Source: a virus (taxonomy: Duplodnaviria > Heunggongvirae > Uroviricota > Caudoviricetes). Taken from it: DNA of 64,000 nucleotides. The stretch lies in IMG/VR virus record IMGVR_UViG_3300001525_000208, positions 15,019-79,018 of that record, one strand, 5' to 3'. Numbering within the stretch: the stretch's first letter is position 1; each line of letters starts with the position of its first letter. The position numbers were made by a program, and so were the translations under genes. The notes beneath the pieces are model-generated. The model searched no databases and was not told the DNA's origin. It was given only the letters and a program-made list of their open reading frames with translations. Positions 1 to 64,000 of the stretch are shown here, piece after piece.

Positions 1-3000
1 ATTTCTAATAATAATATTAGAAATCAAAAACACTTCGGTGGTAAAGATAGATATGGAATTACAGGAACGTTTGAATCTGATATTGTTGAACAGTCTAAAT
101 CGAAGTCTTTAATATTATCTGCAAAAGAAGGAAATGTAGAATTAATTGAAACAATGTTAGTTATTAATAAATTATAGAATTTATTTAATAAAGCAGCTGT
201 TATTGGTTCTATAGAAGTAATAAATCCTTTTTATGGACATGATATGACTGCCTCTAATGAAGAATTATTGTATTCTTTTAATGCTTTGACTAAACATCAT
301 CCTTTAAAAGAAAATAATTTCAGTAATTTTAAAATTTAGATGGCAAGTAAATATTAGTTAGCTTATAATACTTTTAAAGATATTGTAACAACTGGTAAAA
401 GAAATCAATGGGCAGGAGAATTTGTCAAATTTAAAGATTTTGAAACATCGTTAAGTATGCATGATTTATCAATAGATACGTCTGTTGATGAAAAAGTTGA
501 ACAATTAGAAAAACTTCGGAATAAACTTGAAAAAACTTATGATTTACAAGGAATTCGTGAAGAACAATCACAATTAGAATCTGATCCAATTTCTTTATAT
601 AATAAAGTTCTTATTGCATTAGCTGATTTAAAAGGAATTAATTTTAGACAACAGGTTAAAGCTAATGATAAATGGTTAGATAGTTTTTTAATTCACAAAA
701 AAGGTGTAAGTACTTTATTATTCGATAACCCTGGAAATCTCGCAAGTGATACTCTTAATTTACTTACTAAATTAACAACGGAGGCATACTAGAATGTAAG
801 ATCTAGTATGCAAAAACCTAAAGCTGAAATTAGAAAACTTGTAGATGCTATAAAATCAGATCATTCTTATGGATATTTAAAAGAACACTCTGTTGGAAAT
901 GCTGCAAGTTTATATTCTAATATGATTAAAGAAACTCAAGATGGAAATCTTTTATTTAAAAATATAAATGATTCAACTTTATCTTAGAGTGAAAGAAATT
1001 TTATTAAGTATGCTTTAAAAATTATAAATAAAAATAGATTCCCTACTAAAAGTGAAGAAGAGTTAAATATAATGGAAGCTAATGGACAAATTGAATATTA
1101 TCAATTACCTTTAGCTAAAGGTGATATTTCATCTAAAGCTTCCACAGATGGATTATTAGAAGCTTTTAAAGATAAATTAAAAGAATTAAATCCTAGAGAA
1201 TCTATTAAAAGAGCAAAAGATAAATTAGAAGGAATTAATAGAATTGAAGATTAGTCTGCTGAAGAAATTGAAAAACGTAGATCTTCAGATTTATTCGAGA
1301 TGGGTGTAGGTTTTGATAGAGGTGAAGGTTCTGAGCGTATAGATTATATTAAAAAGAAAGGAAGAGGATATTTTGAATAGAACTTGGAGACTTTACTTTT
1401 AAAACACATTTTTCAATATTAGGTTAAAACTAATATGGATAAAGTGTTTCCTATGATGAAAGCAGCTATGGCACATTTGTCAATTCAAGGTGCTAACTTT
1501 AATGAAAAATTTACAGCTGACGCTAAATATTTAAAAGATTATATTGTAAACAAAATTAAAAATGAAAGTATAATCAATCCTAAATATGAGTATGCTGCTG
1601 ATATTGCAAATAAAGTAAAACAAGCTGCTTCTGTTGCAATGCTTGCATTTTCACCTGTACAGGGTTTATATCAATCTATTCAAGGTTTGTGGACTGATAT
1701 TAGACTAATTATACAAAAACCTGATATTATTAGTAAACATGGAAAATCTGCATTTACTTTAAAGAATATGTCAGATTCTTTTAAAACTGCATACAAAGAT
1801 TTATTTGTTTCAGGTAATAAAAATACTGTTAATTCTCTCATTAACGAACTCTACGGTTTAAATGATATGGATATGAATCAATATGTAGATCGTTTAAAAA
1901 CTGATAAATTTGGTATGTTTAACTTTAGTTAGTTCATGTTTAAGTTATCACAAAGACCTGACTATTATAATAGACTTACTATATTTGGTGCTTAGATGCG
2001 TGCAGATGGTACATGGGAAGCTCACAGTATTAAAGATGGGATACTTTAGTATGACATTAAAAAGGATAAAAGATTTTCAGCATTTATTAATAATAATGTT
2101 GGACATCCTGATTACAATAAATAGAAAGTATTGTTTTATACTATGGCAAAATAGTTTGAACTTGAACATGCAAAAAATGCTGACGGTTCAGATTATAAAT
2201 TAGATATAAGTAAACCTAATCTACCTAGAGCTTACACTAATCAACAAGCAGAATCTTACAAATCTTTATCTGATGATATTTATGGATATTATTCTCATGA
2301 AAAGAAATCTTTAATAAATTCTACTTTATTAGGATCAATTTTCATGCAGTTTAAAACATTCTGGACAGGTAAAAAGAATCAATATTTAGGTAAAGGAGGT
2401 GTAAAACTTAGAGGTGAATATCAACAATATGAAGAAAATGGAGAAAAATATTATTATCAAGTAGATAATAATGGAAATATTCTATTTAATGAAGTTCCTT
2501 TAAGTGAATCACAAATGAAAGAAAAAGGAATACCTTTAATAGCACCTTTTATGCAATGGAAAGGTTAGTGGCAAGAAGGCATTGTTCTTACTATGAGTAA
2601 TTTGTTTGCCAGTAATCCTAAACAATTAAGAAAAAATTGGATGGATATGTGGTACAATGAAGATCCTATGCTTCGTAATGCTTATAGAAGTAATATTAAA
2701 CAATTAGCATATGATGGTACCATTTGGATAATGGGTGGAGTACTTTTAGCAGGATTATTAGGAGATTGGCTTAAAGAATTAAAAGAAGACAATAAAGATT
2801 CTAATGATCTTTTTACTGCTTGTAAATTAGCGGCAGCTAATATATTTGTTGCTTCAGTAAAGAATTCATTTTTAGATTTTAATACTTCTGATTCTTTATT
2901 TTCACCTGTTACATCTTGGACTCCCGTATCTTTCGAATGGAGTTATAGAACAGCTAAAAATGTTTGGAATATTGGAATGGGTAATACCGATTTTTGGGAT

Positions 3001-3075
3001 GGCGTAGTTAAAAGTTCTTCTGCGCTTAAATCTATAAAGCCGGGACTTGATATTATCAAACCAAAAGAAAATTAA
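1..3075 (+). CDS. Large late protein, 5'-partial, readable only if in-frame TAG codons are translated. The frame-1 ORFs 457..792, 1072..1254, 1435..1932, 2344..2568 and 2593..3075 are all in one frame, separated only by TAG. There is a TM-like segment near the C-terminus.
   Basis: All ORF fragments share frame 1. The interrupting codons were checked by eye (e.g. 172-174, 340-342, 790-792, 985-987, 1252-1254, 1378-1380, 1930-1932, 1996-1998, 2047-2049) and every one is TAG; no TAA or TGA was seen in frame. The gene ends with TAA at 3073-3075. Confidence 0.65.
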
Positions 3076-3081
3076 AAAAAT

Positions 3082-3119
3082 AAGGCGTGACCTTCTCATA
3101 ATCGAGAAAGCCACGCCTT
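3082..3119. terminator. Bidirectional hairpin terminator between convergent genes
   Basis: aaggcgtg ... cacgcctt is an 8-bp GC-rich inverted repeat. It is preceded by an A-run and followed by a T-rich stretch, and lies between the gene ending at 3075 (+) and the gene ending at 3126 (-). Confidence 0.55.
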
Positions 3120-3125
3120 AATTCA

Positions 3126-3551
3126 TTAGTTTAACATTTTAATTTTATCATTAATGTAGAAGATTGCTTTTTTAAGATCTTCTATAGTTTTTTCTTTGTT
3201 AGAATATCCTTGTTCTGATTTTAAACCACAACGAAGGATATATTTTATTGCATTTCCAAGATCAAAATCCATGTGTCGAGTTATGTCAATAACCTCAATA
3301 CCACATTTTTCTTTTAACCAAGTATAATGAGATGGATGATTTACTCTATCTTCAGAATTAACTTCATTAGTTATTTTAGTAAAATTATCAAAGAAGTCTT
3401 TTAAAGATTCTTCCGAATGTTCAATATGATCACATCCTGTAATTATTCCATCTTGTGTGCAATAACATTTATCACCCTTTTTAAACCAAAGATGCTTATT
3501 TACAATAATATCTTTATTGCAGAAATAAATATTTTCTTTTTCGAAATTCAT
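3126..3551 (-). CDS. DUF3310-like (HPSHY motif) phage protein
   Basis: The C-terminal half contains HPSHY and downstream GIEVIDI...FDLGNAIKYILR, typical of the phage DUF3310 family. Confidence 0.45.
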   Translation of the reverse strand: MNFEKENIYFCNKDIIVNKHLWFKKGDKCYCTQDGIITGCDHIEHSEESLKDFFDNFTKITNEVNSEDRVNHPSHYTWLKEKCGIEVIDITRHMDFDLGNAIKYILRCGLKSEQGYSNKEKTIEDLKKAIFYINDKIKMLN

Positions 3552-3717
3552 TAATTAAAATATAATTTAATTTTAATTTAACAAAATTATTAATGAAATA
3601 TAGTTGTCATGTAATTTGCGAATCCTACTACAAAACTTACAGCAAATCCAATAAGTATAAATGTACAAATCCAAACTGTAATACAACCTATAAATGTTGT
3701 TATATCTCTTTTATTCA

Positions 3718-62687: not shown

Positions 62688-62688
62688 A

Positions 62689-62713
62689 CAATAACTACTC
62701 TTTAAAGAGTAGT
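62689..62713 (+). terminator. Palindromic hairpin downstream of 62265..62687
   Basis: aactactcttt|aaagagtagtt is a perfect 11-bp palindrome followed by tctatt. Confidence 0.4.
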
Positions 62714-62719
62714 TTCTAT

Positions 62720-62793
62720 TGGAGTGTAGTATAAAGGTTTAATTACGATGGTCTCTAAAACCGAAGATCTGAGTTCGAGTCTCAGCGCTCCGA
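62720..62793 (+). tRNA. Amber suppressor tRNA (anticodon CUA), type I. Its acceptor and D-arm resemble the phage tRNA-Gln(UUG), so Gln identity is predicted.
   Basis: Manual fold:
- acceptor TGGAGTG/CGCTCCG (two G.U)
- U8
- D-arm GTAT-AAAGGTTTAA-TTAC with GG
- anticodon stem ATGGT/ACCGA with loop C-U-CUA-A-A (CUA at 62755-62757)
- 4-nt variable loop
- perfect T-arm CTGAG-TTCGAGT-CTCAG
- discriminator A. Confidence 0.75.
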
Positions 62794-63020
62794 CTATTTA
62801 ATTCAATACCTGATATGTTAGATAAATTTACTAATTACTTATTAAAGAAAATGTATAATCAATCTATTAATATTTGTAATAATATAGATAAAATTGTACG
62901 TATTTCAAATAAACAAAACACTCAAGATTTTATAAATTGGCAAGATGCTTTAAATAAGATAAGTGTAAAATAATTAATTTTAAACCAAGCGGGCCTATTC
63001 AGGTTCGCTTTTATTTTTAT

Positions 63021-64000
63021 ATGGCGAAAAAAACATACGAACACAGACCTATTGCGGTAGCACAAAGTGATGCTACTAATGTAAATTCTCGAATTAGATC
63101 TTTCTTAGAAACTCTACGTGCTAATGATAGAGCTAAAGCGGTTGAAGATATTAATGAAGATTCTTATTGGGGTTAGTTTAATCCTGAAGGAGGATGGGTT
63201 ATTTTGCGAGAAACATATACGCTCAAACCCACTTTATATTATAAAGATGCGTCTGATAAACTACACGCTGTACCTGAAAAATATATTAATTCTATTATAA
63301 AGAATCATCATGGACTTTATAGAGATTGGAATGAAGCAGAAACTGATTATTAGAATAATTTAATAAAATTTGGACTTACTCCTACTGTAGTAAGTGCAGC
63401 TCCTGTAGATAATAGAAGTGAAGCTATTAAAGAATATGAACGAAGAGGAAGACGTGCTGCTTATGAACACGATCAAGCAGAAGCTGACGCTTAGAAGGGT
63501 ATTAATATTGCATTGAATGCTATGTCACCTGGTTATTATATAGATAAGACAGGCATACTAGATAATATGTCTGAAGCAGATGCAGAAATTACTAAGGTTG
63601 GGGCTGATTTCGCCCCTGTTATTCTGACAGCTGGTGCTCAAGCTGGTGCTCAAGCTGGTGCTCGGATTGCAAACAGTTTAGTTAAAAGAGCTGCACGAAG
63701 AGCCACGCAAGCTTCAGCTAGAGAAGCAGAACAAGTTTTAGCTAGAGAAGCAGAACAAGTTTTAGCTAGAGAAGCAGAACAAGCAATGGTCAAAAGAGCG
63801 AAAGAATCATTGGCTAGACAAGCTTCAGCTAGAGAAGGAGAAACTATTGTTAATAGACCAGTTAATTTTGAAGACTTGGTGGCTGCTTATTCTAAAAAAG
63901 GTAAAAAAGGTAAAAGAGCACCTTAGCCGAATAGAACTACAGTTGAAACACCTGTTAAACCTGCAGAACCTGTTAAACCTGCAGAACCTGTTGTTGAAAC
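63021..64000 (+). CDS. Late protein, 3'-partial, readable only with TAG translated. It has four in-frame TAG codons and internal tandem repeats (GAQA x3, AREAEQVL x3, PVKPAEP x2+).
   Basis: ATG at 63021. In-frame TAGs at about 63174, 63351, 63492 and 63924, with no TAA or TGA to the window end. Nucleotide tandem repeats at 63630-63662, 63717-63784 and 63951-63990. Confidence 0.6.
63717..63784 (+). repeat. 24-nt tandem repeat (2.8 copies) encoding AREAEQVL
   Basis: gctagagaagcagaacaagtttta is repeated exactly twice, then a third copy is diverged at its end. Confidence 0.8.

Follow-up and report, generated by a model that had tools for sequence, protein, structure and literature searches.

The DNA studied here, a stretch of 64,000 nucleotides (nt) that we call the window, comes from a virus of the Caudoviricetes (positions 15,019 to 79,018 of IMG/VR virus record IMGVR_UViG_3300001525_000208) and very probably holds two readings of the codon TAG. 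A long standard-code block of replication genes is flanked by three genes, called genes 1, 2 and 3 below, in which TAG would be read as an amino acid by means of a tRNA-Gln-like tRNA with anticodon CUA, tRNA(CUA), supplied by the phage itself. Our data show directly that reading frames under selection are interrupted by TAG only, that TAG corresponds to glutamine (Gln) in related sequences, that the CUA tRNA resembles tRNA-Gln and that TAG codons are partitioned between the block and its flanks. The source is an uncultivated AT-rich phage of roughly 150–180 kb, whose relatives lie on contigs of 145–183 kb; G+C content of the window is 28%, and its G+C skew tracks gene strand. The relatives compared throughout are the loci L001–L006, L008 and L010–L013.

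Delimited with only TAA and TGA as stops, the frames of the three genes run over 1..3075 on the plus strand, 60946..62199 on the minus strand and 62958..64000 on the plus strand. The original prediction stated that all three need TAG as a sense codon, and this holds: they contain no TAA and no TGA at all, let alone at a density similar to that of TAG, while their off-frames carry 7–156 TAA + TGA each (41 + 8 and 98 + 58 in the two other frames of the gene 1 stretch). The predicted numbers of in-frame TAGs, about 12, 4 and 4, were right for genes 2 and 3 and slightly too low for gene 1, where we count 14; a fifth TAG in the frame of gene 2, at 62163, lies upstream of its ATG at 62145. When open reading frames (ORFs) of at least 100 amino acids (aa) on the coding strand are counted, replacing code 11 by a code with TAG as sense raises coverage of genes 1, 2 and 3 from 0.43, 0.00 and 0.42 to 1.00, and that of the block (3076..60900) only from 0.71 to 0.75, so this comparison of codes also came out as predicted. 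Interruption by TAG only, without TAA or TGA, recurs in L001, L003, L005, L006, L008, L010 and L012.

That these stretches are pseudogenes, non-coding DNA or products of sequencing or assembly errors is a reading to which we give practically no credence. It could appeal to genes 2 and 3, which have no functional annotation, and to the weak codon-position asymmetry of gene 3 against its relative (40/33/41 differences at positions 1/2/3). It would, however, have to account for 1024, 399 and 326 codons free of TAA and TGA at 27–33% G+C, with off-frames as crowded as given above, and for TAG positions kept in independently assembled contigs. In gene 1, compared with its closest relative L008 (88% amino-acid identity), differences fall 93/43/271 by codon position, a strong third-position bias and therefore a sign of purifying selection. 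Its family counts at least 112 clusters of homologues of about 1,560–1,700 aa in the metagenomic protein database, more than 100 of them full-length, and nearly all share an N-terminal PD-(D/E)XK domain (PF12705) that falls outside the window; PDDEXK_1 is matched also in L004, a standard-code homologue. Gene 2, which appears to be a transcription unit of its own, has two close homologues (89% and 82% identity) and is carried by four contigs.

The tally of in-frame TAGs bears out the proposed partition. Glutamine codons in the three recoded genes are CAA 51, CAG 7 and TAG 22 in 1,749 codons, whereas in the 71 block ORFs of at least 100 aa they are CAA 362, CAG 40 and TAG 0 in 13,654 codons; at the rate of the recoded genes, the block ORFs should contain ∼170 in-frame TAGs. 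TAG thus makes up about a quarter of the Gln codons in recoded genes, and TAG and CAG together reach 36% there versus 10% in the block, which means that TAG is preferred in the recoded genes and is not merely mutated CAG. The block itself proved longer than the ∼50 kb first proposed, measuring ∼57.5 kb (3126..60638). As a terminator, TAG is infrequent but present: 112 block ORFs end in TAA 68 times, in TGA 35 times and in TAG nine times (∼8%). Behind the TAG terminators at 5232, 7176, 9247 and 57150 there is a second stop, in the form TAG-TAA twice, TAG-TGA once and TAG-TTA-TGA once. Three of the nine are backed immediately, versus about 12% expected, a suggestive excess that is not significant; a trend towards a second stop behind TAG terminators is also found in zeta crAss-like phages (PMC12386605). 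For the ORF at 58646..59131, the extension that would follow readthrough of its TAG measures 18 codons here and 13 in relatives, and is probably not functional.

Most likely, TAG stands for glutamine in the recoded genes, as several comparisons of aligned sequences suggest. In L004, glutamine is the most common residue opposite the TAGs of recoded homologues (34 of 164, or 21%, versus a background of 4.5%, a roughly five-fold enrichment), and it occupies five of the 14 positions that are TAG in the window. In the alignment of 112 homologues, glutamine accounts for 36% at TAG positions versus 4.8% in the background, about seven-fold, while lysine is not comparably enriched. Window TAGs at 790, 1993, 2122, 2152 and 2566 fall in near-invariant columns with glutamine in 86–112 of the 112 homologues. 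Against this it has to be said that such column counts are only partly independent, since TAG had already been rendered as glutamine in the translations of many database homologues; the closest database protein is among them, and its own locus does not give the protein under the standard code. Comparison at the DNA level escapes this circularity because the codons themselves are compared. Between gene 1 of the window and that of L008, six of the 14 window TAGs are common and five are CAA in L008, and in the reverse direction two further L008 TAGs are CAA in the window. Gene 2 and its relative have three TAGs in common and one TAG/CAG swap; genes 2 and 3 together add one TAG/CAG and one TAG/CAA pair. 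Altogether, of the 15 TAGs that are not shared with the close relatives (88–94% DNA identity), nine stand opposite CAA or CAG.

The tRNA predicted at 62720..62793 was recovered by both ARAGORN and the Rfam tRNA model, at 62720..62794. Features of bacterial tRNA-Gln identity include U1, G2-C71, G3-C70, G10, U35 and a short variable loop, and the suppressor has U1, G2-C71, G3-C70, G10, U35 and a short variable region. Its 5' acceptor strand reads UGGAG, compared with UGGAA in the phage tRNA-Gln(UUG), and the D arms of the two are nearly identical. The short variable region and the likeness to tRNA-Gln therefore exclude the Tyr, Leu and Ser types. Points that weigh against a glutamine identity are U1-G72 and A73, in place of the U1-A72/G73 of Escherichia coli tRNA-Gln, and an anticodon arm that resembles the phage tRNA-Met(CAU). 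On balance, the suppressor is likely charged with Gln, judging from these elements.

Could TAG be read as some other residue, such as pyrrolysine, lysine, glutamate or tyrosine? We regard this as very improbable. Lysine is second most common opposite TAG in L004 (25 of 164), some window TAGs align with lysine, glutamate, asparagine or serine columns, the anticodon arm is Met-like, and ARAGORN calls the tRNA 'Pyl'. The last point is only that program's name for the anticodon, as the molecule does not look like tRNA-Pyl. In tRNA-Pyl the D loop is small and the variable loop measures 3 nt; the suppressor combines a D loop of normal type containing GG with a canonical T loop and a short variable region, and it shares acceptor and D arm with tRNA-Gln. 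No domain of the pyrrolysine pathway was found among the block ORFs scanned, some small ORFs being outside the scan. The enrichment of glutamine without a comparable one of lysine, the five near-invariant glutamine columns and the exchange of TAG mainly with CAA and CAG between close relatives all argue for glutamine.

The suppressor gene stands at the boundary between the two codes, as predicted. Yet it points the same way as the recoded operon, which it directly precedes, and lies away from the tRNA cluster of the block. The unit to which it belongs runs from ORF120 through a hairpin, the tRNA and a doubtful 52-aa ORF to a terminator-like hairpin, and ends 11 nt before gene 3. Both the tRNA, identical in sequence, and ORF120 keep their positions in four related contigs (L010–L013). 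Conservation of the tRNA position is seen for these close contigs only (88–94% nt identity where compared), because searches for more distant boundaries came back empty: gene 3 and a 161-aa protein gave no relatives in IMG/VR, so the suppressor boundary of distant relatives was not reached, gene 2 gave only one weak match, two tRNA-derived patterns gave none, and full-length gene 3 matched nothing in the protein database. On the other side of gene 2, a hairpin is terminator-like and, from its T-runs, would separate gene 2 from the standard-code block in both directions. Gene 2 and ORF120 diverge from a region in which the unit TATTTTTGAATTATATTTACAATAATAC is perfectly duplicated in tandem; this duplication has sigma-70-like hexamers on both strands and no further copy in the window, and may represent doubled promoter or operator sites; over the boundary region as a whole, sigma-70-like matches number 33 versus 32.4 expected from shuffles.

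ORF120 deserves a separate comment, since it is written in the standard code, bracketed by hairpins and placed between two recoded genes. Its relatives form about 20 representative clusters of 104–145 aa. A structure model built from 20 sequences reached a predicted local distance difference test score (pLDDT) of 84.7, versus a poor 50 for the single-sequence model; ORF120 had no Pfam or PDB profile match, and no PDB fold matched the model at better than E 0.04. One might imagine that ORF120, tRNA(CUA) and the 52-aa ORF form a self-contained code-switch cassette whose small protein assists suppression, in which case ORF120 might antagonise release factor 1 or help to charge or stabilise the suppressor. 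This is a speculation that we consider very improbable.

Code state is labile in this group. Recoded homologues of gene 1 are found in L001, L003, L005, L006 and L008, with 14–45 TAGs, and standard-code homologues in L002 and L004, with no TAG after the likely start. Since TAG-less lineages and relatives with 14–45 TAGs coexist at 40–50% identity, these sequences indicate that the code has switched repeatedly within the gene 1 phage group. The split seen in the window is repeated elsewhere: in L003, L005, L006 and L008, recoded giant genes stand beside TAG-free minus-strand genes, and a 1873-aa frame in L008 carries 19 TAGs. Nothing in the INPHARED phage collection matched 20 kb of the window at the nucleotide level (megablast), and a protein search of the same collection with gene 1 gave only three records, all unannotated or unclassified.

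The original prediction placed the lysis enzymes in the standard-code block only. For the three peptidoglycan hydrolases at 47531..49394 this is true, but it misleads about the phage as a whole. L010 is collinear with the window at 88–94% nt identity, and in L010 and L012 gene 3 (699 aa, six TAGs) is followed by a 246-aa Glucosaminidase with seven TAGs and a 71-aa holin-like ORF with two transmembrane segments and one TAG. Further on there are a 700-aa protein with five TAGs, a 229-aa membrane-anchored protein with six and an HNH gene with two. Because these collinear relatives carry the pair after gene 3, a recoded endolysin/holin-like pair is very probably encoded in the phage of the window too, about 1–2 kb past position 64000. 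In the close relative, TAG makes up a share of 0.50 of the Gln codons in the Glucosaminidase, 1.0 and 0.67 in the transmembrane proteins and 0.50 in the HNH gene, compared with 0.18–0.28 in the large proteins. The standard-code hydrolases are hence an addition to the published pattern and not an exception that overturns it. Their cluster also holds a 100-aa ORF, and near it are two small ORFs with two transmembrane segments by hydropathy (46139..46441 and 45231..45410).

It was also proposed that the block is uninterrupted under the standard code. This is mostly so, except that homing-endonuclease ORFs within it contain or follow in-frame TAGs; all the TAG-dependent exceptions are genes of mobile elements. 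The DnaB-like helicase gene is split into exon 1 (37970..38740, minus strand), which has the PHROG DnaB match and ends at a TAG, and exon 2 (36820..37179). The intervening sequence of ∼0.75 kb encodes a LAGLIDADG_2 endonuclease (E 4.6e–19) and matched no group I intron model at Rfam gathering thresholds. The endonuclease frame is in frame with exon 1, behind the TAG at 37972..37970, and offers no ATG, GTG or TTG before 37759, that is for 70 codons, by which point the domain has already begun. From this arrangement, the enzyme may arise solely by readthrough, after the suppressor has appeared. A second ORF of this kind overlaps the primase stop with its start and carries TAG at codon 29; a weak DUF723 match (E 0.0033, under the Pfam cut-off) spans the TAG position. 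The third, an HNH-like frame with an in-frame TAG and no clear start codon, has a weak HNH match (E 0.0018, under the Pfam curated cut-off) and is possibly degenerate. A recoded intron endonuclease in an early gene has been described in TGA-recoded phages by Borges et al. (bioRxiv 10.1101/2021.08.26.457843). A 198-aa ORF (14980..15576, minus strand) that closely follows the polymerase-like gene shows by eye a GIY-YIG-like N-terminus (GIYVIKNSINGKIYVGKS) and has no Pfam match.

How might such an arrangement work during infection? The TAG-free replication, nucleotide-metabolism, sigma-factor and tRNA genes would be translatable by unmodified host machinery from the outset, while host release factor 1 would terminate at TAG until phage tRNA(CUA), presumably charged with Gln by the host, accumulates. 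Recoded products would be completed only once the amber suppressor outcompetes release factor 1, and full-length products of the endonuclease ORFs behind TAGs would likewise appear only after suppressor accumulation. The TAG-free block would then be early and the recoded genes late, and dependence on the suppressor would hold back or limit the translation of genes for virion proteins, lysis and homing endonucleases. The sigma-70-family factor of the block may direct transcription of later genes. The base that follows sense TAGs is A in 46 of 94 cases and G in 11 of 94, while CAA in the same genes is followed by G in 96 of 258; the skew would fit selection on suppression context, with the reservation that sites in relatives are non-independent.

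Several observations weigh against this scheme. Its early and late classes would follow from gene content and strand only. The recoded proteins of the window had no virion or lysis match in PHROGs, Pfam or PDB, the only domain being the PD-(D/E)XK of gene 1 homologues; proteins 1–3 matched nothing in PHROGs or Pfam, neither the standard-code homologue of gene 1 nor a 2,281-aa neighbour matched any PDB sequence, and searches of Pfam and of PDB sequences gave nothing for the giant neighbours in relatives, a DxDxD regular expression being uninformative. The three hydrolases and the two small two-transmembrane ORFs are in the standard code, and several genes in the recoded region of a relative carry no TAG whatsoever. 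Finally, the suppressor lies beside the recoded operon, not among the tRNAs of the replication block, and has no assignable promoter, so that it may be co-regulated with the genes it serves, which would weaken a pure timing-gate model.

Recoding could be real without being a timing gate, TAG having drifted into tolerant genes in an AT-rich, suppressor-bearing genome or serving another purpose, such as barring competitors or hosts devoid of the tRNA from translating late genes, or using readthrough to harm the host proteome. The genome is indeed poor in G+C, CAG is rare everywhere in it, and a path through low G+C and suppressor acquisition is proposed in a passage of Borges et al. (bioRxiv 10.1101/2021.08.26.457843). 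The suppressor adjoins the genes it serves, the standard-code relatives of gene 1 (L002, L004) show that code state is labile, and Babkin et al. (PMC12386605) discuss suppressor tRNAs in non-recoded phages, with a host-weakening role. Drift, however, would not readily give the preference for TAG expressed in 36% versus 10% TAG and CAG, nor the absence of TAG from 13,654 block codons, which points to strong selection for the partition, nor a TAG share that peaks in lysis-like and homing-endonuclease genes. We hold recoding without a timing gate to be possible but rather unlikely.

The two-code arrangement, with standard-code block, recoded flanks and a phage tRNA(CUA), has good precedents. Borges et al. 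(bioRxiv 10.1101/2021.08.26.457843) described the same architecture, including recoded lysis and intron-endonuclease genes, in several phage clades, and the window matches these alternatively coded phages in every respect tested. Like the gut phages with code 15 (TAG as Gln) in that study, namely crAss-like, Lak and 'gemstone' phages, it combines low G+C and standard-code replication genes with TAG elsewhere. Shared as well are a phage suppressor tRNA(CUA), a code state that varies between close relatives and a TAG bias that is strongest in genes of lysis type and in an intron or homing endonuclease located within an early gene. It differs in belonging to a lineage without an INPHARED nucleotide match, which is not among the annotated clades compared, in having no release factor or aminoacyl-tRNA synthetase among the ORFs scanned, and in keeping three hydrolases in the standard code alongside the recoded one seen in relatives.

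With crAss-like phages (PMC9523058; zeta, PMC12386605), in which translation of TAG as Gln was confirmed by mass spectrometry and metaproteomics (Peters et al., PMC9523058) and which are the only phages for which such insertion is known to have been shown, the window shares two gene blocks of opposite orientation, tRNAs grouped inside the replication module, a number of homing endonucleases, the 150–180 kb size class, CTA suppressor tRNAs and TAG terminators with a second stop. As for differences, the window contains none of the Crassvirales signature genes for capsid, portal, terminase and giant RNA polymerase, gene 1 matched no crAss-like record, the polymerase-like protein is nearest to those of Proteus, Vibrio and Klebsiella phages, and a complete sigma-70-family factor is present. 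The suppressor placed ahead of recoded genes recalls the units of suppressor and theta, or hepatitis delta virus-like (HDV-like), ribozyme of Kienbeck et al. (PMC10879173). However, no HDV-like or other ribozyme stands next to the tRNA (Rfam, 57000..64000, E up to 1), the sequence 3' of the tRNA is AT-rich, and the only ribozyme of the window is a RAGATH-1 hammerhead ∼4.5 kb away. The latter (58137..58228, minus strand; 65.2 versus a gathering score of 56.3 bits in Rfam) lies on the strand of tRNA-Leu, ∼420 nt upstream of that gene, in a region only partly conserved in L010.

The window is thus a clean example of a recoding already well described in gut phages, and it leaves the current view of phage code switching unchanged. 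It would not surprise a specialist; what it offers is a tidy and experimentally convenient locus in an undescribed phage lineage, with well-delimited amber recoding and more than 100 metagenomic homologue clusters but no annotated representative. For annotation, it means that some modules need code 15, since giant and lysis-type genes otherwise fragment. The locus suits studies of competition between suppressor and release factor 1, because the tRNA, its companion ORF, the recoded monocistronic gene 2 with its terminator and the start of the recoded operon all lie within ∼2 kb.

Table 1. Features of the window (positions in nt from its first letter)
Feature	Position	Strand	Remarks
Gene 1	1..3075	+	C-terminal 1024 codons of a ∼1,580-aa protein; 14 in-frame TAG; ends in TAA
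Standard-code block	3126..60638	-	replication, nucleotide-metabolism, tRNA and peptidoglycan-hydrolase genes
ThyX	5419..6234	-	
PolB-related protein	15939..17372	-	477 aa; PHROG DNA-polymerase family; phage PolB/PolB-exonuclease-like annotations
Sigma-70-family factor	17710..18558	-	complete; regions 1.2, 2, 3 and 4 all matched
dUTPase	21129..21644	-	
NrdG-type activase	23967..24464	-	
NrdD	25587..27635	-	
Homing-endonuclease-like ORF	33168..33743	-	191 aa; start overlaps primase stop; TAG 33659..33657, codon 29
LAGLIDADG ORF	37442..37972	-	in frame with dnaB exon 1, behind TAG 37972..37970
Peptidoglycan-hydrolase cluster	47531..49394	-	standard code; Pfam
Glucosaminidase	47531..47920	-	signal-peptide-like N-terminus
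Second Glucosaminidase-domain protein	47931..48506	-	
Amidase_3	48789..49394	-	
Seven tRNAs	49712..57720	-	Thr-UGU, Met-CAU, Arg-UCU, Gln-UUG, Asn-GUU, odd tRNA with 8-nt loop, Leu-UAA
HNH-endonuclease-like frame	54583..55071	-	in-frame TAG 54912..54910; no clear start codon
Odd tRNA	56990..57062	-	8-nt anticodon loop AUUUAUAA; Rfam 57 bits; ARAGORN 'Stop|Ile (ttat)'
Hairpin	60911..60944		14 bp; T-runs on both strands; directly after gene 2 stop
Gene 2	60946..62145	-	399 aa; 4 in-frame TAG; ends in TAA
Tandem duplication	62162..62217		perfect; 28-bp unit TATTTTTGAATTATATTTACAATAATAC; divergent region gene 2/ORF120
ORF120	62325..62687	+	120 aa; standard code, no TAG; directly upstream of suppressor tRNA
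Amber-suppressor tRNA	62720..62794	+	anticodon CUA; ARAGORN; Rfam tRNA model, 50.1 bits
Terminator-like hairpin with T-run	62987..63010	+	between tRNA unit and gene 3 ATG at 63021
Gene 3	63021..64000	+	N-terminal 326 codons; 4 in-frame TAG; starts the recoded operon leaving the window

The gene content proposed for the block was largely recovered: nrdD and nrdG, dut, thyX, the helicases and the lysis enzymes are all there. The 'polB' of that list is a short PolB-related protein, with closest relatives in Proteus, Vibrio and Klebsiella phages at ∼35% identity. We considered it as part of a split gene and dropped the idea, as its homologues are equally long. The helicases are of superfamily 1 (SF1), SNF2-type and DnaB-like, and the block further encodes a primase, an ATP-dependent ligase, RNase H and a ferritin.

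Among the tRNAs of the block, the one with an 8-nt anticodon loop lies in a ∼1.1-kb segment (56494..57625) that is absent from L010, and the ORFs on either side of it both have TAG as terminator. It may be a tRNA-Ile(UAU) that has been damaged, or else a decoder of the ochre type or of four bases. At the far end of the block, a G+C-rich island with runs of G and C (60460..60640) lies upstream of the ORF at 60017..60439 and folds no better than shuffled sequences on either strand (z –1.7 and –1.3). An SPFH/Band-7 protein (44465..45250, minus strand) begins with a lipoprotein-type signal ending …LTSC, and the minus-strand ORFs 47531..47920 and 50246..50398 have signal peptides that end in …KAQ or …FAQ. 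Such N-termini suggest that these three are secreted phage proteins, and their signals might give a hint at the host group.

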